The translations under genes and the position numbers were made by a program. Positions 3,213 through 22,579 of a stretch of DNA of 22,579 bases are shown here, one piece after another (the first letter of the stretch is position 1; the number at the start of each line of letters is the position of its first letter). The notes under the pieces were generated by a model that was given only the letters and a program-made list of their open reading frames with translations, ran no database searches and was not told the DNA's origin. Source of the DNA: Promethearchaeota archaeon (GTDB taxonomy: Archaea > Asgardarchaeota > Hermodarchaeia > Hermodarchaeales > Hermodarchaeaceae); the NCBI GenBank assembly GCA_048939245.1, contig JBHLPR010000034.1:1-22579 (forward strand), given 5' to 3'.

Positions 3213-3343
3213 AAATGACCGATTAACAGTGTTGCGCGCTATCTCCAGGATTTAAGTCGGAAAGAGAGCCATTTTCATCGACGTTTAAGCCTGTTTTACG
3301 GATTTAAGAAAAGTATATGTGTCGCTCAATCGACGAAAGGTTC

Positions 3344-4854: not shown

Positions 4855-5487
4855 TTATTCTTTGACTTCCTTTTTCAGGCGTTCGAGTTCGCGTTTTGTG
4901 CGTTCGCGTCTTTCCTCGGATGTTTCGAGGAGCTCTTCTTCGCCTTCAGGCACGGCAGGTAATTGCCCGGCTTCTTCTAGGGCAATCATGGTTTCAATGT
5001 CTTCAAGCTCTGCATCGACTTCGGCATCCATTTCTTCATCTTCGAGACCCAGACCAAGAATCTCTTCAGTAGCTTCGGCTTCCTCAATGAGTGCTTGAGT
5101 TTCCAGAATCACTTCGCGAGCAACCTCAGGAGAAGCGGTTTCTCGAAGATTTTCCAACTCGGAACCAATGCCTTTCAAGGCACCGATTACTTCTGTTTCA
5201 CCGCGTGCTTGATCGATGGCTTCCACACCACGTTCCATCAAGTCGATTTCTTGTTCGATTAATCGAGCTTTCCGAAGATAGCGTTGGCGTCGACGGAGTT
5301 GAAGTTTGGCAGCCTTACGATCTCCACGTCGAACATAGCGGATTGCTTTAATCCGTGAATCCTTAGCCTTGGTTTCATACTGTCGACCACGGACTTCAAG
5401 TTTATCGGTAACCCGGTGAATTCGTGCAATGGTATCTTCTTTCGGTTCAGGTTTTTTCGGAAAGAGCTTTTCCCAGAATTTTGCCAT
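4855..5487 (-). CDS. ESCRT-III protein, Vps20/Vps32(Snf7)/Vps60 class
   Basis: Amphipathic N-terminus MAKFWEKLF, basic helical hairpin RRGDRKAAKLQLRRRQRY, acidic C-half DAEVDAELEDIE, and MIM2-like LPAVP. Confidence 0.9.
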   Translation of the reverse strand: MAKFWEKLFPKKPEPKEDTIARIHRVTDKLEVRGRQYETKAKDSRIKAIRYVRRGDRKAAKLQLRRRQRYLRKARLIEQEIDLMERGVEAIDQARGETEVIGALKGIGSELENLRETASPEVAREVILETQALIEEAEATEEILGLGLEDEEMDAEVDAELEDIETMIALEEAGQLPAVPEGEEELLETSEERRERTKRELERLKKEVKE

Positions 5488-5491
5488 TTTT

Positions 5492-6103
5492 CTAGCCCTC
5501 CTCCTTTAATCGCTCAATTTCTTTTTCGAGTTCCGAGACCCGCTTTTCGGGCTCGGGAAGCGAGGTGCCCGTTTCTACTTCAATTTCAGAATCGAGCTCT
5601 CGAAGTGCATCCTTTACCTCGCCATCGGTGACTTCAGTTGATACCGCCATTCGTTCCATTCCTGCTTCGGCTACTTCTTGGGTCATTTCGAAGTGGCGGA
5701 GGTTTCCTTCAATTTGATCTACGAGTTTGGCAACTTCAGGAACTTTCACCTGGTTCTTAAGCCCTCCGAGGGCAGAGTTGAGTTGCCCAAGGATTTTTGC
5801 CACTTCACCCATGGCTTCACTTTGGCGTAGCTGTGTTTGTAATCCTTCAATTCGTAGACGATACGCGTCTACACTAAGGGCCCATTTTTGGAAGCGCAGA
5901 TGGTGTTGTAAGTACATCCGCGTCGCATCCATATTTCCTTGAAGCCGGTACTTTTTGGCCCTCTGGCGGCTTTTACTCGCCTCTTTTTCGAGCATCTTCC
6001 GTTGTAAGTCGAGCTTCCGGCAGAAGACATCGAGGCGGAAGATGAGTTTCTTCAGATCGGGTCCGCCGCCCAGCCATGACATAAATCGGCGAATAGCAGA
6101 CAT
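5492..6103 (-). CDS. ESCRT-III protein, Vps2/Vps24/Vps46(Did2) class
   Basis: LIFRL...RKLDLQRKMLEKE...QGNMDATRMY resembles CHMP1/Did2. Has an LPEP motif and a MIM1-like C-terminal helix ELEKEIERLK. Separated from the next gene by 4 nt. Confidence 0.9.
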   Translation of the reverse strand: MSAIRRFMSWLGGGPDLKKLIFRLDVFCRKLDLQRKMLEKEASKSRQRAKKYRLQGNMDATRMYLQHHLRFQKWALSVDAYRLRIEGLQTQLRQSEAMGEVAKILGQLNSALGGLKNQVKVPEVAKLVDQIEGNLRHFEMTQEVAEAGMERMAVSTEVTDGEVKDALRELDSEIEVETGTSLPEPEKRVSELEKEIERLKEEG

Positions 6104-6137
6104 TATCGTTACCTTCCTGTCAACCCTTCAAATCGAA

Positions 6138-6150
6138 CCTATTATACTTT
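6138..6150 (-). promoter_or_regulatory. Putative BRE/TATA promoter of the ESCRT-III operon
   Basis: The minus strand reads AAAAGTATAATAG about 35-45 nt upstream of ATG 6103, followed by an SD-like AGGAAGGT. Confidence 0.45.
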
Positions 6151-6239
6151 TGGGCTCATAGCCTTTAATGGCACGGTTCTATGTATCGATTCGCAAAAAG
6201 AGAATCAATTCCAGGTCCAATACTTCGAAATGAGTCCTC

Positions 6240-6818
6240 CTAGAAAAGGCCGAGGTATCGTAACAATCCGATAATATGGTAGACGAGGGCGATGATGGTA
6301 CCAATAAGTCCAATCCATTGGAGGATTCTAGTTATAAGCTGATGAGAAGTGAGTGGAGTAGTGGTGATGGGCTGATAATCCTGTGGAATGGAGTTAGGAC
6401 GTTTACAGCCAATGGGTCCAAAGGCATCAACTTCTGGGAAAATGTTAATTTCAACGACTCCACGTGTGATTAGCTTGGTTAATGAATGGACGAAGGTGTG
6501 TTTCTTCATATTAAGTAAATTTGCAGCGGTAGTAATGCGAGTAGGATGAGTAATGGAGGCAACGAACCCAGTAACTATTCTGAGCCTTATGAGCTCGTTC
6601 CATTGACTGGTCGAAAGCCACATACCTAAGAACACAAAAATCAGTGATATTGTAAACCACGGAATACCCACAAGTAACAGAACACCAAAGGCGATGAGGC
6701 CTGCAATAGTAATAGCGACACCTATACTGATTGTAAGAGTATATCCTTCAGTTAATCGCCCCATGTTCTTATGATCTAGCGTCACTTCCATCACATTACT
6801 GCGTGTGTCACAGGTCAA
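6240..6818 (-). CDS. Membrane protein with a central winged-helix-like segment
   Basis: Two N-terminal TM helices, then TRITTAANLLNMKKHTFVHSLTKLITRGVVEINI (PCI/wH-like pattern), then a C-terminal TM helix. Start codon uncertain. Confidence 0.6.
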   Translation of the reverse strand: MTCDTRSNVMEVTLDHKNMGRLTEGYTLTISIGVAITIAGLIAFGVLLLVGIPWFTISLIFVFLGMWLSTSQWNELIRLRIVTGFVASITHPTRITTAANLLNMKKHTFVHSLTKLITRGVVEINIFPEVDAFGPIGCKRPNSIPQDYQPITTTPLTSHQLITRILQWIGLIGTIIALVYHIIGLLRYLGLF

Positions 6819-7151
6819 TTTAGCAACTATGTTTATTTATATATATGCTTATAACTATAATTAATTAGCATTAGAAACGTCAATTAATAATTTGGCTCCA
6901 AATTTAATTAAATTAACTGCAAGCCGCCGTTGTAGCGACAGTTCCCTTTTAGCCACAGCCTTTGCCACGTTAGTCTAGAATATTCGAATTACGTGACGGA
7001 GAATTATTTACGATTAGCCCAAGGCGTTTATTTATATACTCACCTATAATTATAGCGATTTACTGCTACAAAGGAGTCGACCAAACCAGCCAACGTAACA
7101 AACTAGAAAAGCGGTTCTTTAACATCAAAAAAATTCTCTGAGCTGAATCTT

Positions 7152-8459
7152 ATGCTTCAAGCGCTACCGACATTTCATCCACTCCTAATAATTGGCCTAA
7201 TCATTTTCTTAGCCGTCGTTGGTGCAGAGATTCAACGTCGCTTAGGGATTCCCCAAGTCCTCGGATTCATCACCATCGGAATCCTACTCGGCCCCTTAGT
7301 TTTTGGGATGATAGATGAAACTCTACTTTCATTTTCCCCTATCATTACAGCCATCGCACTAGGCTTCATCGGATATAACATTGGAAATGAGTTTAGGATT
7401 GATAAAGTGAAAAAGAACGCATCAAAGCTTTTTCCAATCTTGCTTGCAGAAACACTTGGAACATATTTTTTGGTATTTTTTGCAATATTCTTTTGGCTCC
7501 AGGACCCAATATTAGCAATTCTTTTAGGAAGTCTTGCAGCCGCAACCGCCCCTGCAGCAACGGCAGACATTATTTGGGAATTTAAAAGCCGAGGAGCAGT
7601 TACAGATTCGTTAATGTTTATTCTTATTATGGACGATGTCATCGCAATCATCCTGACCAGTATCGCGATTAGTGTTGTATTTCTTTTTCTTAATCCCGTA
7701 GGCACGACATTAATTGCCTTGGTAGCTGCACCCATAATCGAGATTGTTCTCTCAATCCTTATTGGTGCAGGATTTGGAATTCTTCTAGCCCATTTTCTAC
7801 AAAATGTTACAGATCATGGACGATATATACTGCTACTGATTAGCGTAATTATACTGATTATTGGAATTGCTCAATTCCTACATGCCAGTTATTTACTTAC
7901 ATGCATGGTATTTGGAATCGTACTTAGCAATCGCGTTCCAAAGGAATCAATCGAGTTAGGAAATGAAGCAGAAAAGATTCTAAGCCCGATTATTCTCCTC
8001 TTCTTTGTGTTCTTCGGGGCAGGAATGATTAATCCCGTATTGTTGGTTACAGGTGGCTTACTTATCTTCACAACGGCAATTATCTATGTCATAACACGAA
8101 CTCTAGGAAAATATTTCGGAACTCGGATTGCAGCGAAAATCACTGATAGCCCAACAGCAGTAAAGAATTATCTTGGATTATGCTTATTTAGCCAAGCTGG
8201 TGTCGCAGTTGGATTAAGTGTCGTAATGGCAGATTATATGACTCAACTTGGAGTACCAGAATATGCAATTATCATAGTGGGAGTTATTGGCATCTCAACA
8301 CTTATCTTTCAGCTTTTTGGACCACTATCTGTTAAAGTGGCAATCCATAGAGCCGGTGAAGTGAACAACGATAATGAGAATAAAACACCAACAAATGATG
8401 AAACAACACAATCAGGGCAAACATGTGGTTTCCAAGGTCAAGATTCAGATTCCAAATAA
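7152..8459 (+). CDS. Cation:proton antiporter (CPA2 / Na+/H+ exchanger family)
   Basis: About 12 TM helices. IPQVLGFITIGILLGP, ATAPAAT, IMDD, R..GKY.G and SQAGVAVGL motifs. Confidence 0.9.
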   Translation: MLQALPTFHPLLIIGLIIFLAVVGAEIQRRLGIPQVLGFITIGILLGPLVFGMIDETLLSFSPIITAIALGFIGYNIGNEFRIDKVKKNASKLFPILLAETLGTYFLVFFAIFFWLQDPILAILLGSLAAATAPAATADIIWEFKSRGAVTDSLMFILIMDDVIAIILTSIAISVVFLFLNPVGTTLIALVAAPIIEIVLSILIGAGFGILLAHFLQNVTDHGRYILLLISVIILIIGIAQFLHASYLLTCMVFGIVLSNRVPKESIELGNEAEKILSPIILLFFVFFGAGMINPVLLVTGGLLIFTTAIIYVITRTLGKYFGTRIAAKITDSPTAVKNYLGLCLFSQAGVAVGLSVVMADYMTQLGVPEYAIIIVGVIGISTLIFQLFGPLSVKVAIHRAGEVNNDNENKTPTNDETTQSGQTCGFQGQDSDSK

Positions 8460-8584
8460 AAAGCAGCGTTTCGATTTTAGTAAATCTTTCATCACCTCTT
8501 CCAGAGGAGTAAGACCACATTTCTAAGCTATTCTTTTAAACACGATATCTTGAATAATCATTTTAGAAGATACTAGTAGAAGCG

Positions 8585-8905
8585 ATGAAGATCATGGTAA
8601 CACCTGATGAAAAATGGCCAACCGCCTCCTTTGAAGAAAAATATCAGATGATGATTGGTAGTATGTCCAAGGATCAACAGAAAAGATCCGCGCAAAACGC
8701 TGTCCATCTCTGTCTTTGTAATAGGTGTCAGACCAACAACGAAACCGGGGAAATCAATCGTGTCTATTGCACCTTCGGCGAATCAAATTCAATTCAAGAG
8801 CAGAAGGGATGCCTTTGTTCAGAATGCCCAATCACCAAGACCATGAGTATGCGTTGGAACTATTACTGCATCCGAGGTTCAGCAGTGGATCTCTCAGACT
8901 TATGA
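8585..8905 (+). CDS. Cys-rich small protein, DUF2769-like
   Basis: CLCNRC...YCTFGES...KGCLCSECP...YYCIRG pattern. Confidence 0.75.
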   Translation: MKIMVTPDEKWPTASFEEKYQMMIGSMSKDQQKRSAQNAVHLCLCNRCQTNNETGEINRVYCTFGESNSIQEQKGCLCSECPITKTMSMRWNYYCIRGSAVDLSDL

Positions 8906-9024
8906 CCCCTAGTATTCTCTGATAGATTTGACCAAGTGATTTCCGAGTTCGATTTAGAAAAAATCCAATAATGCACTTTATATTGTTGGTCGAGGAACTA
9001 ACGTGAAACTCCGATACCTCATTT

Positions 9025-9249
9025 GTGAACTACCCCACCCTAAAGTGTGGAGCTTCCTGCTTCATCCCATCGACTCGTGTCGACTGGTCCACAGGATTTA
9101 CTCGCCGTTCCGGCGATATTGCCCAGCCACCGGATGACCTTGGTTCTCGGCCCTAGTGATTGAGACTGCATCTAGTTTAGGTGGAAAATCTTAGCTTAAC
9201 TCCTCGATTCATACCTGCCCTCAAAGGTGGGGTCTTCTCTGGGATGAAG
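9025..9249 (-). mobile_element. Non-autonomous IS200/IS605-family miniature element (PATE-like) with a TnpB omegaRNA-type right end
   Basis: On the minus strand: TTTAT target (9254-9250), then a left-end hairpin AGAAGACCCCACCTTTGAGGGCAGGTATGAAT, and a right end ...CCTGTGGA...GATGAAGCAGGAAGCTCCACACTTTAGGGTGGGGTAGTTCAC ending in TCAC. No tnpA or tnpB ORF. Confidence 0.85.
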
Positions 9250-9279
9250 ATAAATACGAATTGAACAAGATTTTTTGTT

Positions 9280-10821
9280 ATGGCCGCTTCTGAATCTCTT
9301 TCTGCATCAACTTATGACGACTATGTGCCTGTAAAAGCAAAACTGGGATTTAGCGCAGCTAATACGTCAAATATCCTCTTATCTGGTTTGGCTCTTGGAG
9401 CTATTGATATTTTTTATCTCAAATTCTATAATTTGGACCCCCGACTCCTAGCAATCTCTTGGATTCTGTTCATGGGATGGAATGCTGTTAATGACCCATT
9501 GATTGGGATTATTCAAGATAGAACTAAATCCAAACTTGGGCGCCGAGTTCCTTACTTGCGGTACGGGGTGATCCCGTATACGATAGCTTTTCTGTTAGTC
9601 TGGTTTCCTTTCATTTTTAATTCACAGGTCCTTTATTCTTTATTTGCGCAATGGTTTCCAGGAATCAACACTACTGATGTGGGCTTGTTTTGGAATCATT
9701 TGATGATGCTATTTATTTTCGACACGTTGTTTAGCATGATTGGTTTGATATGCAATATTCTCCCTGCCGAAATGGCTGTTACGGCACAAGAGCGGACGAA
9801 TGTTGTAGCCTTTGCTACGATTTTGGGGGTGCCTGGTTCAATCCTTTCGGTTATTCTTCCGATTATGTTACTCGGTGGAGACAGCCCCGATAAAACTACT
9901 TTTTTAATCGTGATGGTGGTTATTGCCATTATTGCAGGGGTATTGCTGTATGTATCGAGTTATTTCATTAAGGAAAATCGCTATGCGGTGACTGAGAAAC
10001 CATTGGGCTTCAAAGAGAGTATTATCGACACTTTCAAGAACAAGCCATTTCTAATCTTGGAAGTCACCATCTTTTCGTTTGTGGTACTTCAAGAGTCGAT
10101 GTTTAGCGGATTAGTTTATTTAATGGATTTTGTTTTGATTATTACTGGCTGGATGTCAATCGTTTCTCTTATCCCAGTTGTGATTGTGTTTGGCTGGGTG
10201 TTATGGAAGCTGCTGAGTAAAATCTCTAGTCTTGGACTCCGAAAAACCATGTTGAGGGCGTCTTTCATTGCGATAATCGGATATATTCTATTCTTGGTGA
10301 TTGGATTGTTCTGGGGTCCACGAGTATCTGTGGAGATGGTCGTGATTGCACTAGGTTTAATGTTTGTGGGATTATTGACGTTCGTGATGATCAACCAACC
10401 TTTGTTGGGGGAGGCCATTGATTATGATGAGATTCTCACTGGGAAACGCCGAGAAACGACATATTCAGGAGTCAACGCATTAATCACCAAGCCTGGAGTA
10501 TCGATTGCGCATTTCCTCACACTCTCAATTATGGCGATGTTTGGTTATAACGCCGACCTTCCCGTCTCAGCACAACCTACATCAGTGTCGATGGGAGTTT
10601 TCCTTGTGTTTACAGTAGTACCAATAGGTTTCCTCCTTATTGGTAGCCTCGCAATGATGAAATATCCCCTTCATGGTGTGGAGTGGAAAGATCAAAAGCT
10701 CCACCTGCAGAAGATTCACACGCAGAAAGAGCAGGAGTACTTGGTTTATCTCGAAGAGGTGATATTGAACAAGAAAGAGAATATCGAGGATAAAACACAA
10801 TCAGATGAACCGCATGGATAG
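9280..10821 (+). CDS. MFS transporter, glycoside-pentoside-hexuronide (MelB/MFS_2) family
   Basis: WNAVNDPLIGIIQDRTKSKLGRRVPY and DYDEILTGKRRETTYSG motifs, about 12 TM helices. Confidence 0.92.
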   Translation: MAASESLSASTYDDYVPVKAKLGFSAANTSNILLSGLALGAIDIFYLKFYNLDPRLLAISWILFMGWNAVNDPLIGIIQDRTKSKLGRRVPYLRYGVIPYTIAFLLVWFPFIFNSQVLYSLFAQWFPGINTTDVGLFWNHLMMLFIFDTLFSMIGLICNILPAEMAVTAQERTNVVAFATILGVPGSILSVILPIMLLGGDSPDKTTFLIVMVVIAIIAGVLLYVSSYFIKENRYAVTEKPLGFKESIIDTFKNKPFLILEVTIFSFVVLQESMFSGLVYLMDFVLIITGWMSIVSLIPVVIVFGWVLWKLLSKISSLGLRKTMLRASFIAIIGYILFLVIGLFWGPRVSVEMVVIALGLMFVGLLTFVMINQPLLGEAIDYDEILTGKRRETTYSGVNALITKPGVSIAHFLTLSIMAMFGYNADLPVSAQPTSVSMGVFLVFTVVPIGFLLIGSLAMMKYPLHGVEWKDQKLHLQKIHTQKEQEYLVYLEEVILNKKENIEDKTQSDEPHG

Positions 10822-10909
10822 AAAAAACTTGTTCATTATCTCAATCGGCTCAAAAGACCTGATCATTGTTTGATTTAATTTGTATTCCAATGGTTTAAGA
10901 CGTTTGGAT

Positions 10910-12523
10910 CTATTTTCTCATCATTTTTTTAGGATTAACGGTCATTTCGATGCCATAGCCTAAAAATGTCAGTCCAATAACAAAGGCAGCTATGCATATT
11001 CCAGGAGGGAAGAACATCCACCATGCTCCATAAGCAAGGGCATTCCCGTAGAATGCAACGGCAATCATTCGGCCCCAAGAAACAAAGTTGATGGGTAAGA
11101 ATATTGGTGAACTTGGAGTTCCTCGAAATTCGTCGAAGTTGTGTCGATAATCAAAGAAACCTAAACTGGCTTCGATTGTTACAGCAGTAGCTGCAATCAA
11201 TGTTAATTGAACCAGAAAAATTGTCAAAACATTTGGTAAGATTGTTCGAAAAATTAAGTATCGGGAACCGGCTCCCGCTGCGCGGGTAGATTCCACGTAG
11301 CCTTTTTCTTTTTCAACTAAAACTTGAGAACGAATTACTTTTGCCGTTTGAGGCCAAGTTAATAATGCTATGATCAAAATCATGAATTCGTAACTTGCCC
11401 CTTGCAGCACTACCATTAATACCATTAGAATCGGTAAAATTGGAAAAATGAGGAATAAATTCGAAACTGCCATTATAATTTCGTCTACAGCCCCACCTGT
11501 ATAACCTGCAATAAGTCCGGTGCAGAGACCGATTGTACCGCTAATTAATGCGGTTGATAAGGCGACATAGAGTGATATATGAGATGCCCAAAAGAGCTGT
11601 GATAGAATATCGTTACCATCCGTACTCGTTCCAAGCAAGCCGTAATAACGGCTTACTCCCCGGATTTCCATTTGATCGAACCAAAATTCGATGGTTCCGG
11701 TTCGACTTGCATCTTCTTCTGTAAAGTATAGTCCGAATTCGATGGTCACATTTTCAAAAGGTCGAAAAATGTGATTGCAGAGGAGGGAAACAATTGGCCG
11801 TCGATAAATTTCCCAATCAGAGTTGAATGAAGTAAATTCAAAATGATAGTAATTTACCGATACAGGAGGTGTGTCATTTGGAAGATATACTTCCAGATAT
11901 GGGATGACGGAATTGTGTGTGAAATTACCTGTGAATTTTGATTTCATAGCAAATTGAATAGCAATATCTGCTGGCGTACGATAGGGAAAGATGAAACTAA
12001 TTTTCCCCCATACGCTTTCTGAATATGCATCTGAGCTATTATTCTCAAATAGAGAAAATTTAACAGAACGTTGACCGGCAATAAATTCATCCATATCATA
12101 CGAAAAGTTGGCAACAGAGGGGTTAGAAGCGCCCATTATACAACTAGAGTTGTCTGTAAAAAAGGGGTCTGGAATGTAATTACCCGTGGGAGCTGCAAGA
12201 GGATCAAGAAAGGCTAACCAACCAGGCGCACACTTTGGTGGTCCCACAACATTTCCAACCCGTAATCCAGGATAGATTGGGAATAATATCGGTGCTAGAA
12301 TAGCCATGAAAATAGTGAACAAAATAATTCCGAGCCCAACAGGACCATACTTGGAATGGTAAAAATTCATCCATAAATTTTTGATATGCTCTTTCGGAGT
12401 TTGCCGATGTCTTATTCTTTGTTGGTTCATTATTACAAAGCACAGTTCGGAGTTTTCTGGTATATTGTATGCGGTGATGAGTTTGACGTGTGACGTATTA
12501 AGCTTTTGGAGTTGTTCAGCCAT
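10910..12523 (-). CDS. Peptide/nickel ABC transporter permease (DppC/OppC-like) with a large extracytoplasmic insertion
   Basis: LLGTSTDGNDILSQL, EAA motif YVESTRAAGAG, ILPN, EASLGF, SWG and AWWMFFPPG. An alternative start is ATG 12430. Confidence 0.9.
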   Translation of the reverse strand: MAEQLQKLNTSHVKLITAYNIPENSELCFVIMNQQRIRHRQTPKEHIKNLWMNFYHSKYGPVGLGIILFTIFMAILAPILFPIYPGLRVGNVVGPPKCAPGWLAFLDPLAAPTGNYIPDPFFTDNSSCIMGASNPSVANFSYDMDEFIAGQRSVKFSLFENNSSDAYSESVWGKISFIFPYRTPADIAIQFAMKSKFTGNFTHNSVIPYLEVYLPNDTPPVSVNYYHFEFTSFNSDWEIYRRPIVSLLCNHIFRPFENVTIEFGLYFTEEDASRTGTIEFWFDQMEIRGVSRYYGLLGTSTDGNDILSQLFWASHISLYVALSTALISGTIGLCTGLIAGYTGGAVDEIIMAVSNLFLIFPILPILMVLMVVLQGASYEFMILIIALLTWPQTAKVIRSQVLVEKEKGYVESTRAAGAGSRYLIFRTILPNVLTIFLVQLTLIAATAVTIEASLGFFDYRHNFDEFRGTPSSPIFLPINFVSWGRMIAVAFYGNALAYGAWWMFFPPGICIAAFVIGLTFLGYGIEMTVNPKKMMRK

Positions 12524-12739
12524 GTAGGTCTGATACCGTTATTGGCTTGATCATTTTCGATGTCGGATATGTCATAATCTTGGGCATCATTGTCATAATT
12601 GTGATAATTACAGTCACATATAATTTTTCAAAAAATGAATAAGAAGAATCAATCTAAAATGAAAATCTGTTGTTTTTGTGAGAGTGATATGCTCAATATA
12701 ATTCGAGGTTAAATGATTTTTACATGATAAGAGTATTAA

Positions 12740-12880
12740 CCTACAAAATTTTTCATATGATGTTTCTTAGCCACAAAGACCAAAGAAGGCGTTTCTGGGG
12801 AGCGATAACCGCGTAAGTTTTTCAAAGATTTTTTTCGGGTAGTAACCAGAAAAGCCACCTCACTTCACTCATTGCCAAAG
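12740..12880 (+). repeat. Dispersed cassette-boundary repeat, copy A
   Basis: CCTACAAAATTT-N18-GCCACAAAGACCAAAGAAGGCGTTTCTGGGGAGCGATAACCGCGTAAG...TAACCAGAAAAG, with tail TTGCCAAAG. Confidence 0.9.
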
Positions 12881-13055
12881 AGTTTCATTTTTCTGCAGAT
12901 ATTTATTGTCTTAACTTTTTTCCGCTTCGACTTAGTAGAAGAATCTGTTGATATGTTGGAAAAAAAGACTATTGGGTTTTTCCACTGAATTCTCCTTTGA
13001 GCGGGAGAAAAGAACTACCAGATAGATAATAGAAGTCAAAAACCTCTATCAGTGC

Positions 13056-13135: not shown

Positions 13136-13684
13136 TTAGTGGTGACCTGTGATTCCTTTGACGAGGGCATTAAATCCAAACATCATGAAGCCAAGGGCTA
13201 CATAGATGATAAGAAGTAGATATCCAAATCCAGGTAAAGCGATGACTACAAAGGATAAGATAATGCCGATGAAACCAATGATAACAAGCCACCCACGATA
13301 CCAACCTGGAAGCTCAGTTATCATTGCACCAAAAACAATGGTATTTAAGCCGTTTACAAGGAGACCTATGACTAGTAACCAAATCAGCAGAAGTTCACCA
13401 AAAGCGGGGAAGGCGATTACCAGACTGGCTAACGAAAGCATAAGGATTCCAAGTATGACGGTAAGGACCCTTAGCCAAGTAGGTGTTTGTTTAGACAGAA
13501 GTCCCCCGACCAAATTACCAACCCCTAAGAAGATAAGAATCACTCCGAGAAAGGTAATTAAAACGAGTATCGTTAGGACTTGTAGCCAATCAAACCATAT
13601 AACTGCAAAGGCGACACCGATAGTAATGAAACCAACGATGATATTGAGAATACGTAACCACATAGGAATTACTGTTTCACTCAT
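13136..13684 (-). CDS. HdeD/DUF308-like membrane protein
   Basis: Three internal repeats (WLRILNIIVG, WLRVLTVILG, WYRGWLVIIG) and six TM helices. ATG 13684 (MSETVIP) is preferred over 13762. Confidence 0.75.
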   Translation of the reverse strand: MSETVIPMWLRILNIIVGFITIGVAFAVIWFDWLQVLTILVLITFLGVILIFLGVGNLVGGLLSKQTPTWLRVLTVILGILMLSLASLVIAFPAFGELLLIWLLVIGLLVNGLNTIVFGAMITELPGWYRGWLVIIGFIGIILSFVVIALPGFGYLLLIIYVALGFMMFGFNALVKGITGHH

Positions 13685-13897
13685 TAAGAATGCACCATTG
13701 GTGGGGTGAAAAAGAACCCTTAATATGTGTTTAGCTTTTATGAAAGCTGATTCGAACAACATGAATTGAACTTTTAGTGAAAAAACGAATTTCAGCTAAG
13801 AAACCAATTGTTCGTTTTTATTTGATAGATTAACAGAAGTACCTAAGGCTTTTATCGAAGATGAATGCAATGAGGGATAATAATCCTCTTTGGTGAA

Positions 13898-14257
13898 TTG
13901 ATAATGGTAGCAGGAATTATTGGCACCGCTATAATCTTCATCGTTGATTGGATCGTGATATCTGTTGTCATTATGCTTGCAGGTAAACTCGTCGCTGGTA
14001 TGGAGGCTACGTTCAAGCGGGCACTACTAGCCAGCTTAGTTGCTGCAATCGTTGGAACTTTAGTATATTACGGTATAGAGTGGTTCTTTCCATCACTCGG
14101 ATGGCTCTCAGGGGTCATCGTTTTCATTCTATATCTGGCGATTATCAGATATTACTTCCAGACTGGATGTATCGGCGCATTACTAGTGGCTATCATTGCC
14201 CTCATTTTGTGGATCATTCTCGCCTATCTTTTCACAGCCTTCCTCCCAGGATTCTAA
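13898..14257 (+). CDS. Small four-TM membrane protein, function unknown
   Basis: 119 aa hydrophobic ORF with a GGTGA SD-like sequence upstream. The start may be ATG 13904. Confidence 0.75.
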   Translation: MIMVAGIIGTAIIFIVDWIVISVVIMLAGKLVAGMEATFKRALLASLVAAIVGTLVYYGIEWFFPSLGWLSGVIVFILYLAIIRYYFQTGCIGALLVAIIALILWIILAYLFTAFLPGF

Positions 14258-14277
14258 GCGCCAGCTAAGAAAAAACC

Positions 14278-14309
14278 AGGAGCCCTTTGTGGCTCCTACC
14301 CTCTTTTTT
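14278..14309 (+). terminator. Hairpin + U-tract terminator-like structure
   Basis: AGGAGCC-CTTTGT-GGCTCCT stem-loop followed by T6, 20 nt after the stop at 14257. Confidence 0.55.
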
Positions 14310-14405
14310 ATGAATGGGTATTTGTAGACATATGCTTTAAAGAGTCATTCTGCCATTTCTTGAGAAATAGTATTTGAGCTTCACATCTTCTTAGGAGTAA
14401 GTACT

Positions 14406-15473
14406 ATGAAAAAGAGTGAACGCCCTCGTGGAGTGAAAATCCTTGTTATGATTTGGTCACTGAATGCAATGTTTCACCTTGGGATTGCCTTTTTTCGCGT
14501 TTTGACAGGAATTGGAATGTTGGAAGGAATTTACCCTTCTGATCCAAGCATTCCGAATTTTATTGATACCATCACTAACACCCTTAGGATCCTAGGCACG
14601 CCAGAAAATGTCATTGCCATCGTAGAAAGCGTAAAGGGACTTTTAGCAGGGATTGAGGGCAGCTTCTACATAATTTCTGGGGTCATATATTTAGGCATAG
14701 CAACCATCTATGCCTACATAAGCATCAACATTTGGTATATGGACTACCAAGCCATCTGGAAAGCTATTCTTATCAACATTTTAGAAATCGTCTTTTTCAT
14801 CAGCGTTTTTCAAACCATACTCAACCTCATAATTCAATTTCTGTGTATACTATCAATTGGGGTAATTATCATTATGAGCAGTTATCTCATCTTGAGACGA
14901 AATCTCTTCATTAATCGAAGAAAAGCCCGGGAAGAAGAACTCTTGGAAGGTGAAAAAGTCCCTAATCAACGACCTATGATTTACGGTATAATCGGGGGGG
15001 TAACCCTAATCCTTGTCCAGCGTAGTGGGCGAATACCCATTGTAACCTGGCTGCCACTCCTTCTTGGTCTGATTTTTATTCCCGAAATGACTCCTGAATT
15101 AATCACCTTGCTGATATTGTTAGACATTCTCGCATGGTGTGGTGGCTTCATCGTCATTGCCGGTGTGGTGCTCCTCTGGAGGGAGAATTATAATGGGGCA
15201 AAATTCCTAATGGGAATAGGTTCGGGATTTGGAATTGTTGGACTCTTAACGTGGTTTGCCATTGATTATGTCTTCAGCGCGATTTACCCTCTCGAGTACA
15301 CAATCATCCAATATGTTGAATTTTTTGGACTCTTACTAGTTCTTTTAGCTCGTGTGAGTATTCGCACGCCCAAGCAGTGGAAGAGAATCCTCGAACATCG
15401 GGCAAAGGAAGAAGCCGCCAAAGAGCGCTGGAGGTCCCGTTGGAGGAGGTTTACCAGTTGGCTAAGGAAGTAG
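14406..15473 (+). CDS. Polytopic membrane protein, function unknown
   Basis: 355 aa, about 8 TM helices, SD AGGAG upstream, basic C-tail. Confidence 0.8.
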   Translation: MKKSERPRGVKILVMIWSLNAMFHLGIAFFRVLTGIGMLEGIYPSDPSIPNFIDTITNTLRILGTPENVIAIVESVKGLLAGIEGSFYIISGVIYLGIATIYAYISINIWYMDYQAIWKAILINILEIVFFISVFQTILNLIIQFLCILSIGVIIIMSSYLILRRNLFINRRKAREEELLEGEKVPNQRPMIYGIIGGVTLILVQRSGRIPIVTWLPLLLGLIFIPEMTPELITLLILLDILAWCGGFIVIAGVVLLWRENYNGAKFLMGIGSGFGIVGLLTWFAIDYVFSAIYPLEYTIIQYVEFFGLLLVLLARVSIRTPKQWKRILEHRAKEEAAKERWRSRWRRFTSWLRK

Positions 15474-15491
15474 CTATCTGCAGAGTATTAT

Positions 15492-15637
15492 TCTGAGAAA
15501 TTTACCCTCAGCTAGTGCACGCCTGCAAAGACTAAAGAAGGCATTTCTGGGGACGATGACCGCATAGGGTTTTCAGGGATTTTCTTGAGTGATGACCAGA
15601 AAAGTAGGCTTCTTTTATTGTCATCACACCGGTAAAG
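15492..15637 (+). repeat. Dispersed cassette-boundary repeat, copy B
   Basis: TCTGAGAAATTT-N18-CCTGCAAAGACTAAAGAAGGCATTTCTGGGGACGATGACCGC...GTGATGACCAGAAAAG...GTCATCACACCGGTAAAG. Confidence 0.9.
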
Positions 15638-15822
15638 CACTTGTTTAGTTACATATACCCAAGATTCGTTTCATCTATGTTCTACCGTTACGAAAACATT
15701 ACCCTTTTTGTGCCTTTTTTCGAAATAACATTGAGCTTCGACAATTTGTACAAACGAGTAAGCTCTTGTTGTTCCACTGTTCTACTCCAACTCGCTCTGC
15801 TCGACATAGTCATTGGATCTTA

Positions 15823-17286: not shown

Positions 17287-17460
17287 CAGTACGAATTTCT
17301 TATGGAAATGTCAGCGATTAAAAACCTACTGGTATTCCGAATGACTTGAATTTGAATAAATCCTTAGAAAACAGTATTTACATCTACGTTGGAGAATAAT
17401 GCTAACGATTAAGATGGCTCTTTCTTCAGTAGATAAATGGTTTGAAGCGACTGCGTTTTA

Positions 17461-17506
17461 TGGAGTTTATCATATTTTAGGAGGCGTTTCTGGGGGCGAT
17501 AACCGC
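17461..17506 (+). repeat. Dispersed cassette-boundary repeat, copy C (partial)
   Basis: TGGAGTTTATCATATTTTAGGAGGCGTTTCTGGGGGCGATAACCGC. The left flank resembles copy G and similarity stops just after the core. Confidence 0.8.
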
Positions 17507-17575
17507 AAAAATAATCTTCTGTAATAAATGGAGAAATTAATACCTTCAAATGCCATTATTGGACTCGCTACCCTA

Positions 17576-18076
17576 TCATTTTTCATCCAATTCAAGTATT
17601 GTTTCTACTGTCCATTTAGCAGCGTTTTCCGTTACAGAAGAACATTTTTCAACTGGCTTCGTTTCCATAAATGCTTGGATATCCTCAGGATTGAGAGAAT
17701 CATATGATCTCCCATACAATTTCGTTTGTATTTCACTGCACAAGAAGCCGCCATACTCTTGATTGAACTTTTCTCGAAGCAGCTTCACGACGCCCCATAT
17801 CTTCTCCGTTGTTGGTCCCATACTCTTGTATTTCTCTCGGTTCACTCCGTACTTCAGTCCTATTGCCGCTATTCCTCCACAAATAGAGCCGCAACCTCCG
17901 CTAAGACTGGATAAACCAATCATTGCCTTGAACAAAGAATCGCAGACTTCCAAGTCTAATGTATCAGCCACTGCTAAGAGAGTGGCTTGAGCGCAGCCTC
18001 CGTATTTCGACATATATTCTTTGCCTAATCGTCTTGCTTTTTCTATGAGTTGTTCATTTTTAGACATAATCATCAA
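17576..18076 (-). CDS. C-GCAxxG-C-C family putative redox-active protein
   Basis: YGGCAQA, GCGSICGG, LCSEI and KCS cysteine pattern. Confidence 0.88.
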   Translation of the reverse strand: MMIMSKNEQLIEKARRLGKEYMSKYGGCAQATLLAVADTLDLEVCDSLFKAMIGLSSLSGGCGSICGGIAAIGLKYGVNREKYKSMGPTTEKIWGVVKLLREKFNQEYGGFLCSEIQTKLYGRSYDSLNPEDIQAFMETKPVEKCSSVTENAAKWTVETILELDEK

Positions 18077-18212
18077 CCAATTCGTTTCGGATATATGGCA
18101 AATCTCTACTAAAAACGAGTTAAAAAAAGTAATGAGTTCGAGTCATAAGACCAATTGAGGATTTCTCACGAAAAATGAAGTTGAGTATAGTGTTTTGAGA
18201 AGAGATAGTTTT

Positions 18213-18326
18213 CCTGCAAAATTTGTTATATGGTAGATTGTACCCGCAAAGACTAAAGAAGGCATTTTGGGTGGCGATAACCGTTTATTTTTTTCCGGAG
18301 TTTTCTTGACCGACAACGGGAAATAG
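18213..18326 (+). repeat. Dispersed cassette-boundary repeat, copy D
   Basis: CCTGCAAAATTT-N18-CCCGCAAAGACTAAAGAAGGCATTTTGGGTGGCGATAACCG...TCCGGAGTTTTCTTGACCGACAACGGGAAA. Confidence 0.92.
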
Positions 18327-18530
18327 GGTAATTGCATTAAGAATTTGAGACACACAGAAAATTGTTTCGATTCTAATCGCATTCGAGAAGTAACAGACCT
18401 ATTAGCAATCATACGCGATGAATAATCTGGTAATAACGCTTCAGGCATCTATTACAACGTAAATCAATTGAACGAAAATAGAACATAAATAATCAGAGTT
18501 ATTTGTAATTTTAAAGTAACAGGGATCAAA

Positions 18531-19649
18531 TTGTATAAAATCACTAAGGATTCATCTAAAGTCATTGGTTTAACAATGGTTGCAGCTATTCTAGTGTTGT
18601 TAGCTTTACAGTTATATTTAACAACACCAGAAACCCGGTCTTTTGAATCAGAAAGTCAATCATATTTCTGTACAATCTTTAGTGTATCAATGGGTGACAA
18701 AGTATTCTTTGGTAATAATGAAGACTCTAAATGGTCACCTGAAACATCATTTATTTCTTTTATTCCACCTCAAACAATATACAATTTTAGAAATCTGCCA
18801 AGCTTTGGTTCATCACTTGACATCTATGGTCAAGTAATCGTTGGAACTGTTTTACGGGAAGAAGGACAGGACTATTACTATGCACAAGGAGGAATGAATG
18901 ATCAAGGCCTTTGTTTTGATGCGAATGCTATTCCCGAACAAATTCTAGATAATGAAAATGCCGATTGGCGTCCATTAAACGCTCATTGGGATATACTGTG
19001 GCATTGTCGCACGGTGGAAGACGTCATCAATTGGTATGAAACACACCCAATGATGTTCACGATATGGTCTGGTCAATGGAATTATGTAGACGCATCTGGT
19101 GATGGAGTTGTTGTTACAGCGACAGATGGTGAACTAGTATTTGTAAGGAAAAATACCAGCTACCTTGTATCAACTAATTTTAACCTTGCAGAACCTAGTA
19201 GTCATTACTTTGACTATCCTTGCTATAGGTACGACACTGCTACTGAGATGCTTGCAGAAATTGACAGTGAAGATGAGCTTACAATAGAAGCTTGTCGTGA
19301 TGTACTTAAGGCTACGCACTTTGAAGTTAATATCTTTGATAAACTTCACACAATGTACAGCACTATTTATGACGCAATTAGTAGAGATATCTACCTTTAT
19401 TTTCTTCATGACTTCACAGAGGTTGTTGAATTCAATCTTGAAGACGAAATCTCAAAAGTTGATTTGTTTGAAAGTAACAATACATTTCATAGCGCTATTA
19501 TAGATAATACTTACCTGATGAAGAATTTCTTTCATTATACATATTCAGGTTTCTTTTTATCTGATTATTTGATTGTTTTTCCATTAATCGGTGGTTTAAG
19601 TACCATTGTCATTATTGTTACTTTTCTGAAAAAAAAGAAACATTCCTGA
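18531..19649 (+). CDS. Membrane-anchored Ntn-hydrolase (C45/choloylglycine hydrolase/acid ceramidase-like)
   Basis: N-terminal TM or signal, nucleophile motif CTIF...FGNNED, GGMNDQGL, STNF and RY motifs, C-terminal TM helix followed by KKKK. Confidence 0.85.
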   Translation: MYKITKDSSKVIGLTMVAAILVLLALQLYLTTPETRSFESESQSYFCTIFSVSMGDKVFFGNNEDSKWSPETSFISFIPPQTIYNFRNLPSFGSSLDIYGQVIVGTVLREEGQDYYYAQGGMNDQGLCFDANAIPEQILDNENADWRPLNAHWDILWHCRTVEDVINWYETHPMMFTIWSGQWNYVDASGDGVVVTATDGELVFVRKNTSYLVSTNFNLAEPSSHYFDYPCYRYDTATEMLAEIDSEDELTIEACRDVLKATHFEVNIFDKLHTMYSTIYDAISRDIYLYFLHDFTEVVEFNLEDEISKVDLFESNNTFHSAIIDNTYLMKNFFHYTYSGFFLSDYLIVFPLIGGLSTIVIIVTFLKKKKHS

Positions 19650-19829
19650 CTTTCCAGTTATGAACTAAACAATCATAGTATCTAATAACATTCCACCTAA
19701 ATGAAATGAATAATGATCTAAGAGCTAATTGATAATCATACCCGAGCAAATACTTTTGTTAACAGCGAATAACTGATATGATATTCTATTGGCTGTTCTC
19801 AGAAAAAAAATGGGCAAGTGCTCCTTCAA

Positions 19830-19945
19830 CCCGCAACATTTTCTGAGGAACCATGATTTCCCGCAAAGACTAAAGAAGGCGTATCTGGGAGCGATAACCG
19901 CATAATATTTTCAAGGGTTTTCGCGGGTGATAACCTGAAAAGTCA
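19830..19945 (+). repeat. Dispersed cassette-boundary repeat, copy E
   Basis: CCCGCAACATTT-N18-CCCGCAAAGACTAAAGAAGGCGTATCTGGGAGCGATAACCGC...GTGATAACCTGAAAAGTCA. Confidence 0.92.
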
Positions 19946-20887
19946 ATCCCCTCGCGTGTTATGTTCCACCATTATTACTACATTTCCTTTCTTGTGTCCT
20001 TTGTCAACATATCGGTGGGCTTCGACAATTTGCTCCCATGGATAGGTTTTATCTATGACCGGTTTTATCTTTCCCGCCTCAACAAGCTCTTTTAGGAAAA
20101 TTAGATCGTCAACCTTTTCGCTTCCGATGTTATCATGAGCTGACATGTATGTCCCCGTTGGAGTTAGTGCTTTCTTACGATTTGCTTTGGGGATTTTTGC
20201 AACGGCATCAAAGATGATATCATAAAACTCTCCTTTTTCCGTAAAATCCACTTTAGTATAATCAATTACCTTATTAGCTCCCAGAGACTTCACTAACTCT
20301 AAATTCGTGGTACTGCATACCCCGGTAACTTCGGCCCCAAAGTACTTAGCAAGCTGTACTGCAAAAGTACCTACACTTCCAGAAGCACCGTAGATCAGAA
20401 CTTTTTGTCCGCTCTGGATATTTCCTTTCCTAAGAAACCTTAATGCATGAGCTCCTCCAGTCGCAAGTCCGGCAGCGGCTTCCTCATAGGTCATATTGGT
20501 CGGTTTTATTGCCACAATCCCGTCTTCAGGCAGACATCTGTATTCCGCATAACCACCAAAACTCATCCCGGTAGAAGCAAAAACCTGATCACCTTTTTTA
20601 AACCGTGTTACCTCTTTGCCTACTGCTTCAATTTTTCCAGCTAACTCCATTCCAAGGATTTTTTTCCGTGGTCCTCTGATACCTAGAATTAGTCTTGTGA
20701 GGAGCCTTTGGAAGGCGCCACCAGGGATGGTGAAACTTCGTATTCTAGAGTCTCCCCGATGCACTGTTGTCGCATAGACTTTAATCAACATTTCATTGTC
20801 CTTGGGAGTGGGCTTTTCAACCTCTTTGAACTGGAGAACTTCCGGTGGTCCGTATTTTTTGCATTCAATCGCTTTCATTTTCATCAT
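19943..20887 (-). CDS. NAD(P)-dependent medium-chain dehydrogenase/reductase (quinone oxidoreductase-like)
   Basis: MKAI...[27 protein letters not shown] nucleotide-binding motif, GHKKGNVVI. Zn-binding cysteines are absent. Confidence 0.93.
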
Positions 20888-20938
20888 CGATTGATTTCTT
20901 TACGTTTAAGGCAAATAAAATCTTACCTCAGATATTAT

Positions 20939-21153
20939 CCTGCAAAATTTGTCATCCGCTAGTGTCTACCCGCAAAGACTAAAGAAGGCGTTCTCAAAGG
21001 CGATAACTGATTTAATTTTCTCCGGAGTTTTCTTGACCGACAGTGGGAAAAAGTCAGCTGCAGCCTTACCCTGTCATCGCTCGAGAAAAGTCTGCCAAAG
21101 CCGAAAGTCGAAGATTAAATTAATACTGCCCAACCAAGGGTGCCCCAAGATAA
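20939..21153 (+). repeat. Dispersed cassette-boundary repeat, copy F (longest)
   Basis: Both CCYGCAAA boxes, the core, right arm CTTACCCTGTCATCGCTCGAGAAAAG, and tail GCCAAAG...TCGAAGAT...CAAGATAA shared with copy G. Confidence 0.92.
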
Positions 21154-21278
21154 AGTGTGTCACCTTTGCCGTGTTAGCTTATCTACCGCCGGGACTAAAG
21201 ACGACAATGGTATCCGTTCTTGTTGAATACATTTTTCAGTAAATTCCTTGAGTGATTAGAGATAAAGAGAGGTAGCCC

Positions 21279-22142
21279 ATGAAAATTACAATCATTGGAG
21301 TTCCGTTTAATGGAGATGGAACGCCTCCTGAAGTTGAAAACCCAGCCCAATCCCTTAGAGATGAAGGGGTGATTTCCGTACTTCAGAACAAAGGACATCA
21401 CCTAACTGATTTTGGCGATTTGCACATTCCCATGTTTTCAAATAAGAAAGATCCAATTACAAATGTTCTGAATTTTGATGCGTGGCGAGAGGTATCTCTG
21501 AGTTTATCTAGAACTCTAGGTGATGAATTAGCTCAAGATAGTTTCCCAATTGTACTGGGCGGAGACTGTGCCATTCTAATGGGGATTCTTGATGCGTTCA
21601 ATGTAATGAATCAACCTTTGAACCTCTTCTTTCTTGACGGACACGCTGATTTTCACACTCTTGATACCTCAACAACCGGTGAGCCCGCTGACTTAGAATT
21701 AGCTGCCTTGACAGGGCATTTGTCTAAAGAAATCGTTTACATGACAGGACGAGGGCCATTACTGCATGAAGAAAATGTCGTTGTATACGGAGTAGGTGAA
21801 CTTGACTCTATCGAAAGGTCGAATATCATGTTAGTTAATCGCAAATCAATTTTAAAAGATGGAATTGAACCAACCTTTCGTCGAAGCCTTGGCTCATTCC
21901 AGAATCCGGATTTGCCACTTTGGCTCCATTTTGATGTTGATGTCTTGGACAAAGAAATCATGCCAGCTATACAGTATCCTGTTGAGGGCGGTCTCTCATA
22001 CAACGAAATCCAAGAATTGCTTACTCTCCTAAAGGAAAGAACCCAACTAATCGGAATGAGTATTACTTGTTACCATCCAAAGCTGGATTATGATAAAAAA
22101 GGAGCCAAAACGCTTCTTTTACTTTTCAAGGAAATTTTCTAA
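21279..22142 (+). CDS. Arginase/ureohydrolase family protein
   Basis: GVP, DFGD, LGGDC, DGHADF, HFDVDVLD, GGLS and YHP.LD motifs. Confidence 0.92.
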   Translation: MKITIIGVPFNGDGTPPEVENPAQSLRDEGVISVLQNKGHHLTDFGDLHIPMFSNKKDPITNVLNFDAWREVSLSLSRTLGDELAQDSFPIVLGGDCAILMGILDAFNVMNQPLNLFFLDGHADFHTLDTSTTGEPADLELAALTGHLSKEIVYMTGRGPLLHEENVVVYGVGELDSIERSNIMLVNRKSILKDGIEPTFRRSLGSFQNPDLPLWLHFDVDVLDKEIMPAIQYPVEGGLSYNEIQELLTLLKERTQLIGMSITCYHPKLDYDKKGAKTLLLLFKEIF

Positions 22143-22249
22143 GACAGGAATTAACGAAAAAATTTCAAAAATGACGGAATGTATCTTTAATAGCCTTACT
22201 AATAATCTTGACTTTTGGGATTTGATGGAGGGAAAGTCTCTAAGCTTTG

Positions 22250-22436
22250 TGGAGTAGACCATATTTAAGAAGGCGTTATTGGGGGCGATAACTGATTTAA
22301 TTTTTTCCGGAGTTTTCGTGGCTGATAACGGGAAAAGTCGTTCCTCTTCTTACGCGGTTATCGCACCAGTAAAGTTGCCAAAGTATAATATCGAAGATAC
22401 ATAATCTACCAAAGTGTATAACACTCCTCAAGATAA
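22250..22436 (+). repeat. Dispersed cassette-boundary repeat, copy G
   Basis: TGGAGTAGACCATATTTAAGAAGGCGTTATTGGGGGCGATAAC...TCCGGAGTTTTC...ACGGGAAAAGTC...CTTACGCGGTTATCGCACCAGTAAAGTTGCCAAAG...TCGAAGAT...CAAGATAA. Confidence 0.9.
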
Positions 22437-22579
22437 GCAACTCATTCATTTAATCTAAGGATGAATTTCAAACCAAAGGCGATATACTACATTTGGTTCT
22501 TGTGAGAAGAAGAAGATGGGAATAAAGTTCTGGTTCATGAAAGCTTTCGTCATGAGATTCGGTATACCAAGAATCAAAC

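Follow-up and report, generated by a model that had tools for sequence, protein, structure and literature searches.

What does the long repeat between the ESCRT-III genes and vps4 of Candidatus Hermodarchaeum do, and does it act through a folded structure or through its sequence? One part of it, positions 20986-21096 of the window (the whole stretch of DNA that was analysed, 22,579 nucleotides), was originally predicted to form a long imperfect hairpin with co-varying arms and an AAC...GTT core, like the single-stranded attC sites of integrons. To answer this question about 50 copies of the repeat were collected from 15 genomes of the genus, and the 25 copies with a full right part were aligned. 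Population variants were taken from Logan contigs of public sediment runs. In a literature search no paper describing the vps4 array was found; the three-box anatomy of its arm, the negative covariation and folding tests and the metagenome variants are new.

The cassette array between ESCRT-III and vps4

The window is the entire contig C19 of a 2.5-Mb metagenome-assembled genome (MAG) that is 88% complete. It holds seven copies of the repeat, each of about 165-200 nt and all on the plus strand, between positions 12736 and 22410. An eighth full copy (H) and a ninth, vps4-proximal junction lie on contig C54. A ferredoxin-like gene is split across the last 64 nt of the window (first 21 codons, 22516-22579, plus strand) and the reversed start of C54, which opens with its last 49 codons, so the two contigs are adjacent. 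C54 further contains junction H, two more ORFs, the vps4-proximal junction and vps4. A genome-wide profile search found no other copies of the repeat outside the C19/C54 array. The nine junctions of this genome divide accessory-gene cassettes between ESCRT-III and vps4.

The array is anchored on the left by two Snf7/ESCRT-III genes (4855-6103, minus strand) and is followed on the right by Vps4, ESCRT-II, Vps36-like, Vps28 and UEV/Vps23. In one genome of the sister genus the neighbour of the Snf7 genes is vps4 itself. Here the site is empty: Snf7 and vps4 are divergent with 222 nt between them, and CCACAAAGACTAAAGAAGGCGTTTT lies about 60 nt upstream of the vps4 ATG. The repeat is present in 13 of 14 genomes of the genus, in one of four genomes of the sister genus (this empty site) and in none of 42 other genomes of the phylum. 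The array is thus genus-specific and consists of accessory-gene cassettes inserted at the vps4 promoter of Candidatus Hermodarchaeum.

The surroundings of the array deserve a short description. A conserved 497-aa protein (3317-4810, plus strand) beside the ESCRT-III genes gave weak Vps23-core, zinc-ribbon and GRAM/PH-like matches and may be an ESCRT-I-like component of this lineage. On C54 (L001), among the ESCRT-I and ubiquitin genes downstream of vps4, lies a TnpB / IS605 OrfB-type gene (7057-8454, minus strand) with HTH_OrfB_IS605, OrfB_IS605 and Cas12f1-like TNB domains, which is missing from the syntenic region of the other genomes. From Snf7 to the first junction (6104-12736) there are genes for a 192-aa protein of unknown function, a Na+/H+ exchanger, a DUF2769 protein, an MFS transporter and an ABC permease, with no detectable repeat; a search for decayed junctions in 6000-12740 gave none at E<=0.1. 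Since the DUF2769 and MFS genes are bounded by junctions in other genomes, the genes of this segment may be older cassettes whose joints have eroded. The 192-aa protein (6240-6818, minus strand), which has no Pfam or NCBIfam match, lies beside Snf7 here and in genome G003, and in G014 it lies inside the array between two junctions. Possible readings are a cassette that has lost its junction here and an ESCRT-linked gene.

The cargo comprises several dozen unrelated enzyme and transporter families in both orientations, with a GC content of 0.34-0.51: amidase, arginase, Zn-dependent alcohol dehydrogenase (Zn-ADH), C45-like hydrolase, nitroreductase, alpha/beta hydrolases, alkyl sulfatase, P-type ATPase, MFS, GH38 and others. 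The first cassette of the window, between junctions A and B (13136-15473), carries a DUF308-like membrane protein (minus), a 119-aa ORF (plus) and a 355-aa membrane protein (plus), a trio that also occurs together in G012. Next come an amidase (PF01425; 15823-17286, minus), a C_GCAxxG_C_C redox protein (17576-18076, minus), a C45/AAT-like acyltransferase-hydrolase (18531-19649, plus; GC 0.34-0.36), the Zn-ADH (19943-20887, minus) and an arginase-family enzyme (21279-22142, plus).

Relics of the Zn-ADH 3' end, its last 30-34 codons, stand directly after the right-hand arm of the repeat (called M2 below) in junction B (15676-15748) and in three other genomes (L036 3359-3460; L038 1523-1615; L039 10871-10960). 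Three different cargos are preceded by the tail relic together with the same M2 subtype, and cargo therefore seems to have been replaced within an existing cassette frame; this suggests one route to new cassettes. Very high summed contig depth was seen over the ADH gene (19766-21177) in mangrove and sediment runs at 90% likeness; it probably reflects many related dehydrogenase genes of other organisms and not copy number.

The exchange point and the three-box arm

A junction is composed of a left module, an 11-13-nt core and a right part, about 200 nt where M2 is included. The left modules are of at least four unrelated kinds, of which the commonest resembles the native vps4 promoter region. 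The core, AAGAAGGCGTT, is a nearly invariant 11-mer. As its right part a junction has the M2 arm (about 135-145 nt), which is found on this side of the core only; the last junction has the genuine vps4 leader instead. The stretch 20986-21096 is the cassette-side M2 arm, that is, the right-hand part of junction copy F.

At which point are the cassettes joined? Junctions were paired that have an orthologous far flank on one side and an unrelated one on the other. In 15 pairs the left flank is orthologous and the right unrelated; in these, as in the converse pairs, the transition is always within AAGAAGGCGTT(YT). Two left-module kinds were each found both with M2 and with the vps4 leader, so that all four combinations exist. 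The arginase, amidase, ADH and MFS cassettes stand in differing contexts across genomes. For example, the arginase gene with its F-type M2 and the following L2 module recurs in G012 and G008, and both its left and its right neighbours differ among G000, G012 and G008. The amidase has other neighbours in G012, in G003 and in metagenome contigs, one of which joins it to junction G, with four cassettes skipped. On a contig from run X2, at 99.6% identity, the C_GCAxxG cassette lies behind another left flank, joined within the core; the joint is ambiguous over 17 nt at this place. A joint in run X1 (20994 to 22298) was rejected as the paralogous copy H mapping onto F and G, and another from this run (21106 to 22246) was left out, one of its sides being only 30 nt. 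Outside the array the 11-mer occurs five times in the genome, always in coding sequence and without repeat context.

These comparisons show that cassettes are gained, lost and reordered via exchange within AAGAAGGCGTT(YT), and that M2 is a discrete arm of three boxes travelling with the cassette on its right. As in integrons, cassettes of unrelated function are swapped as units at a common site, and their orders differ between related genomes. In this respect the original idea of a recombination-site repeat was right: the repeat belongs to a cassette array.

To work out the anatomy of M2, the 17 nt of the left arm (box 1, consensus GCGATAACCGCATAATT) were turned into a weight matrix, with no other box as input, and the rest of each of the 25 copies was scanned with it. 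The best match exceeded the 95th percentile of shuffled sequences in 23 of the 25 copies, and the second match did so in 15. The unit therefore carries three copies of a 16-17-nt box, GCGATRACCGnATAAG. Counted from the start of the core, box 1 lies at about +19 (the core begins 18 nt to its left) and box 2 at about +55, both direct, and box 3 lies inverted at about +80-96. The motif GYGATAACC, first described as occurring four times in alternating orientation, is instead found as three boxes, direct, direct and inverted, and the "hairpin" dyad is box 1 facing the inverted box 3. T6 and T4 runs between boxes 1 and 2, and an A run overlapping the end of box 2, are all near-invariant. Conservation of M2 in the 25-copy alignment is block-wise (core, boxes, T and A runs) with variable spacers, and lies in sequence rather than in structure. 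The five best box matches of the whole genome all fall within the array; vps4 leaders and left modules gave no match to the box matrix.

The copies of the window differ in how much of this arm they keep. Junction A (12736-12925), recovered by nhmmer, core table and weight matrix, has a vps4-promoter-like left module (12736-12782), the core AAGAAGGCGTT at 12783-12793, box 1 at 12802-12818 and a degenerate right part. Junction B (15488-15748) has a left module, a core at 15535-15545 (AAGAAGGCATT) and a full M2 with box 1 at 15553, box 2 at 15589 and box 3 at about 15613-15629, after which comes the ADH relic. In junction C (17430-17512) a second kind of left module (L2) is followed by the core variant TAGGAGGCGTT (17478-17488), and M2 ends after box 1 (17496-17512). 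Junction D (18209-18379) combines a promoter-like left module with a core at 18256-18266 and box 1 at 18274; it is without box 3. Junction E (19826-19959), with the L1b left module, has its core at 19873-19883, box 1 at 19891 and box 2 at 19927; its M2 runs into the Zn-ADH stop codon (19943-19945, minus strand), so there is no real box 3. Junction F (20935-21125) consists of a left module (20935-20981), a core (20982-20992), box 1 (21000-21016), a degenerate box 2 (about 21037-21053), the inverted box 3 (21064-21080) and a conserved tail, CTGCC..CGAAGAT, to about 21125. Junction G (22222-22410), the best-pairing copy, has an L2 left module (22222-22266), a core at 22267-22277, box 1 at 22285-22301, box 2 at about 22322 and the inverted box 3 at 22348-22364. 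All these junctions are on the plus strand. The truncation points of M2 differ among several cassettes (about +24, +35 and +57), and the vps4-proximal junction is entirely without M2. In a near-identical strain even a cassette that has box 1 only has been rearranged, which means that boxes 2 and 3 are not an absolute requirement.

Two smaller features were noted at the junctions. The 7-nt spacer between core and box 1 (20993-20999 in F) is hypervariable after every core (CTTGCGG, TCTGGGG, CTCAAAG, ATTGGGG and others), even between orthologous cassettes whose adjoining 270 nt are nearly identical. About 40 nt before the core, F carries the palindrome GCAAAATTTGC (20948-20958), which recurs at the corresponding place in other left modules of the promoter-like kind and may represent the vps4 promoter's TATA/BRE region or a binding site of another sort.

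Several other readings of these sequences were rejected. A small ORF over the repeat (20949-21242) does not hold, as the indels between copies are not multiples of three. M2 is not an old vps4 leader or head: the apparent colinearity (GATAA at +24, ACC.G at +58, CAGCT.GCAG at +68) found no support, and in an nhmmer search of 13 vps4 leaders with the M2 profile there was no match even at E<=100. A second dyad around the core, CCGCAAA...TTTGCGG, appears at CTTGCGG-type junctions and in some vps4 leaders; it gave no complementarity peak over slid registers in 51 junctions, and a genome-wide search for similar dyads returned only noise.

Enzyme search and possible roles of the arm

If cassettes are exchanged at the core, then which enzyme could do it? 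Pfam and NCBIfam searches found no recombinase, transposase or endonuclease among the approximately 50 ORFs of the array, and none of the 15 arrays encodes a recombinase. The genome has a single tyrosine recombinase (one PF00589 match), which scores above the cut-off of the archaeal XerA model (274 against 220 bits) and below that of the integron-integrase model (163.9 against 265 bits), and which is present in one copy through most of the genus. No serine recombinase (PF00239) was matched in the genome. No IntI-type integrase was found either, which in a genome 88% complete does not prove its absence. As the sole tyrosine recombinase is of the XerA type, a host enzyme acting in trans is conceivable. 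Archaeal tyrosine recombinases are reportedly the subject of an existing review.

The core shows no consistent inverted repeat around it: complementarity of the flanking 11 nt averages 4-5 of 11 at every register, without a peak. A dif site is built of 11-bp arms and a 6-bp spacer (PMC2958812), and since no such 11-6-11 inverted-repeat layout surrounds the core, it is unlike a dif site.

Homing endonucleases were also looked for, and none was found. The genes adjacent to vps4 differ in every genome (hydrolases, ferredoxin, nitroreductase, small unknown ORFs), and in 12 genomes the slot beside vps4 holds no endonuclease-like gene. An array grown by the swapping of heads and tails by a homing endonuclease was therefore rejected, the slot having no endonuclease, M2 showing no detectable likeness to the vps4 leader and one exact core being the meeting point of unrelated flanks, though the left module is promoter-like. 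The end of an IS or MITE and a plasmid or phage origin were rejected too: the copies occur at one locus only, and neither a blastn search of plasmid and phage collections nor a pattern search of viral contigs gave a match.

Among the roles proposed at the outset, a multi-subsite region of putative recombinase-binding sites fits best: the three boxes hold fixed positions, occur only in the array and lie beside the mapped exchange point. M2 is best read as a putative double-stranded, multi-subsite accessory arm of a conservative site-specific recombination site, with behaviour like that of integrons and a site that is not attC; we give this reading a probability of about one half. Even odds also apply to its mechanistic part, in which the boxes and the T and A tracts would serve, as double strand, to bring a recombinase acting in trans together at the core, in the manner of accessory sites. 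Each cassette would bring its own M2, with three boxes adjoining its core; a recombinase or an architectural partner, supplied in trans, would bind the boxes as double strand; the bendable T/A tracts together with the bound boxes would build the synapse; and conservative strand exchange would take place at the neighbouring core, as with the arm sites of lambda-type attP. The outcome would be an integron-like cassette array with a sequence-defined site and without an integron integrase. Several observations speak against such an accessory arm. The array encodes no recombinase, and the core has no consistent flanking inverted repeat, which is unusual for core sites of tyrosine recombinases. In addition, M2 is truncated in places, the cassette with box 1 only has been rearranged, and the vps4-proximal junction is without M2.

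The arm may have a different role. As a transcriptional insulator or operator, M2 would stop or regulate transcription that comes from the left module, where a displaced vps4 promoter copy lies; T runs would then be archaeal terminators, the boxes putative regulator sites, and only the core would take part in recombination. This is unlikely on present evidence and is nevertheless consistent with several features: the left module is similar to the native promoter region of vps4, the T6 and T4 runs, 25-40 nt beyond the core, are near-invariant, the A run is a T run on the other strand, and M2 is always absent from one kind of junction only, the vps4-proximal one, at which read-through is needed. 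However, no regulon is apparent, the box having no further strong sites in the genome, and the cargo genes downstream of M2 point either way.

M2 could also be an old flank of an ancestral Zn-ADH cassette, copied whenever cargo was replaced or a cassette duplicated, with boxes that come from an old internal duplication and have no present function. The ADH remnants after M2 in junction B and in three other genomes, before three cargos, point in this direction. Because one M2 subtype with an ADH-tail relic precedes these three cargos, the conservation of M2 could partly reflect common descent. The truncation of M2 at many points and the degenerate boxes 2 and 3 of several copies agree with this. 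Against mere hitch-hiking stand the block-wise conservation with variable spacers, where uniform decay would be expected, the box positions held in copies only 60-80% identical overall, and the right end of M2, common to copies before many unrelated cargos. We regard such an origin as rather improbable.

Folding of the dyad and comparison with known sites

Does the dyad fold? All coordinates and strings on which the original prediction was built were rechecked in the window and are correct. In G, GCGATAAC (22285-22292) stands opposite GTTATCGC (22357-22364) and TTATTGG opposite CCAGTAA; in F, TTCTC opposite GAGAA; in B, GATGAC opposite GTCATC; and the left arm of A (12802-12817) is the exact 16-nt reverse complement of G 22349-22364. 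The proposed helices are 75.7% paired in the 25 copies and 31-62% paired once their partner columns are shifted, which shows the inverted repeat to be real; the recovery of boxes 2 and 3 by the box-1 matrix shows this too.

Co-variation of the arms did not survive the larger sample. In the 25 copies, drawn from 15 genomes, both the pairing percentage and the covariation score equal the shuffled means (318-320 of 500 shuffles were as high), and in the register of copy F 342-369 of 500 shuffles were as high in pairing and covariation. When the dyad is extended to 16 bp, 41-50 of 500 shuffles reach it, and two candidate inner stems show weak trends (12-62 of 500); such counts can occur without any structural constraint. 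About four new copies from a metagenome pattern scan were too few to alter the test. The two changes taken as compensated also have simpler explanations. The arginase-cassette orthologues of G012 and G008 have CTTGCGG in place of F's TTCTC, opposite the same right arm, and the G-C pair of B is a single change on the left meeting the majority C on the right. At the central position of the dyad 19 of the 25 copies have an A.C mismatch. The original prediction held that structure is under selection and named an absence of significant covariation among more homologues as its refutation; the larger set gave no significant signal and on that criterion refutes a selected fold.

Folding of both strands led to the same result, most single copies being no better than shuffled sequence. 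As single-stranded DNA the z-scores range from -2.3 to +1.3 overall and from -0.9 to +1.3 in 12 of 14 strand-copies; they are close to zero in five of seven copies on the plus strand and in all seven on the minus strand. As RNA, only the G-type subfamily (z -2.9 to -3.6) and copy B do better than shuffled sequence; in five of eight copies the fold of lowest energy is the long hairpin. The RNAalifold consensus of the 25-copy alignment is weak (-2.58 kcal/mol) and does not contain the long stem. A search against Rfam 15 gave no match at gathering score over the whole window and none at E<=1 over 19800-22450. Nothing in these results indicates that the DNA must fold like an integron attC site.

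For the repeat to be such a site, the M2 strand would have to fold into a hairpin of box 1 and box 3 and be recombined as single-stranded DNA by an integron-type integrase. The inverted repeat, with parts about 80 nt apart and AAC...GTT-like ends, and the good RNA folds of some copies are in its favour, as is the reported occurrence of integrons and CALINs, archaeal ones included, in Asgard MAGs, where integrons and integrase-less attC clusters are reported to be enriched (Ghaly et al. 2022, PMC9668308). However, covariation does not exceed that of shuffled sequence, and in most copies neither do the single-stranded DNA folds. Where attC has two nested inverted pairs, three boxes are found, one inverted pair plus a direct third box. 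The RYYYAAC...GTTRRRY ends with a joint inside the GTT of R' were not seen: 19 of 25 copies have GTCATCGC as their right arm, so that GTCATC, not GTT, occupies the would-be R' box, the A.C mismatch results, and the AAC...GTT core of the prediction lacks its GTT in most right arms. The mapped joint belongs to a separate core, whose start is 18 nt beyond the stem, the cargo is found in both orientations, and the only tyrosine recombinase stays far below the integron-integrase cut-off (163.9 against 265 bits). The vps4 array thus fails every attC-defining feature that could be tested, and the attC reading, very improbable by now, is largely refuted.

Least probable of all is a structured non-coding RNA transcribed from the promoter-like left module: a TATA-like AAAATTTG about 40 nt upstream of the core and the copies that fold well as RNA would suit it, but the consensus fold lacks the long stem, the inner stems show only weak trends (12-62 of 500), Rfam has nothing at gathering score or E<=1, and many copies are without the promoter module or half of M2. 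A C/D-box sRNA reading of the GATGA and CTGA strings was rejected, most copies having GATAAC and Rfam giving no match.

How does the array compare with known systems? It is like sedentary chromosomal integrons and CALINs in that a co-oriented repeat separates cassettes of one or a few unrelated genes, cassettes are common to species in different orders, repeats are alike within an array and no integrase is adjacent. Unlike them, it has a site defined by sequence (an 11-13-nt core with 16-17-nt boxes) and not by a folded R''-L''/L'-R' hairpin; its joint lies outside the dyad, its cargo in both orientations, and no IntI was found. Its anchor is the promoter of the core gene vps4, whereas an integron array starts at attI beside intI.

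The second comparison is with lambda-type att sites. In a lambda-type attP, arm-type boxes are bound by the N-terminal domain of a heterobivalent integrase, with bending factors in addition, and integrative elements can accrete in tandem at one chromosomal att site. The vps4 array shares with these sites a short common exchange core, a mobile-side site of about 200 nt with direct and inverted boxes and A/T tracts, a much shorter chromosomal site, and an element that replaces the displaced part of its target, here the promoter-like module. In contrast, its cassettes carry no integrase or excisionase, the core has no consistent inverted repeat, and the elements are only 1-3 kb. The likeness to attP is one of layout alone (three boxes, T/A tracts, adjoining core), no candidate integrase having been found.

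The accessory-arm reading can be carried one step further, to an Asgard gene-capture platform without its own integrase, placed in the vps4 promoter within the ESCRT locus and run in trans by the housekeeping XerA or by a so far unrecognised recombinase family; the three boxes of M2 would be the accessory sites that bring the enzyme in. This is a speculative proposal and we would not expect it to hold. If true, cassette systems would gain a new class with a mechanism unrelated to that of integrons.

The repeat should not be classed as attC or as a structured RNA. Its architecture, an 11-13-nt core with a three-box arm, is directly testable. Asgard archaea are the closest prokaryotic relatives of eukaryotes, and the vps4 array bears on how they acquire foreign metabolic genes: it offers a concrete, sequence-defined docking site at which such genes are stacked and shuffled in the midst of an ESCRT gene cluster.
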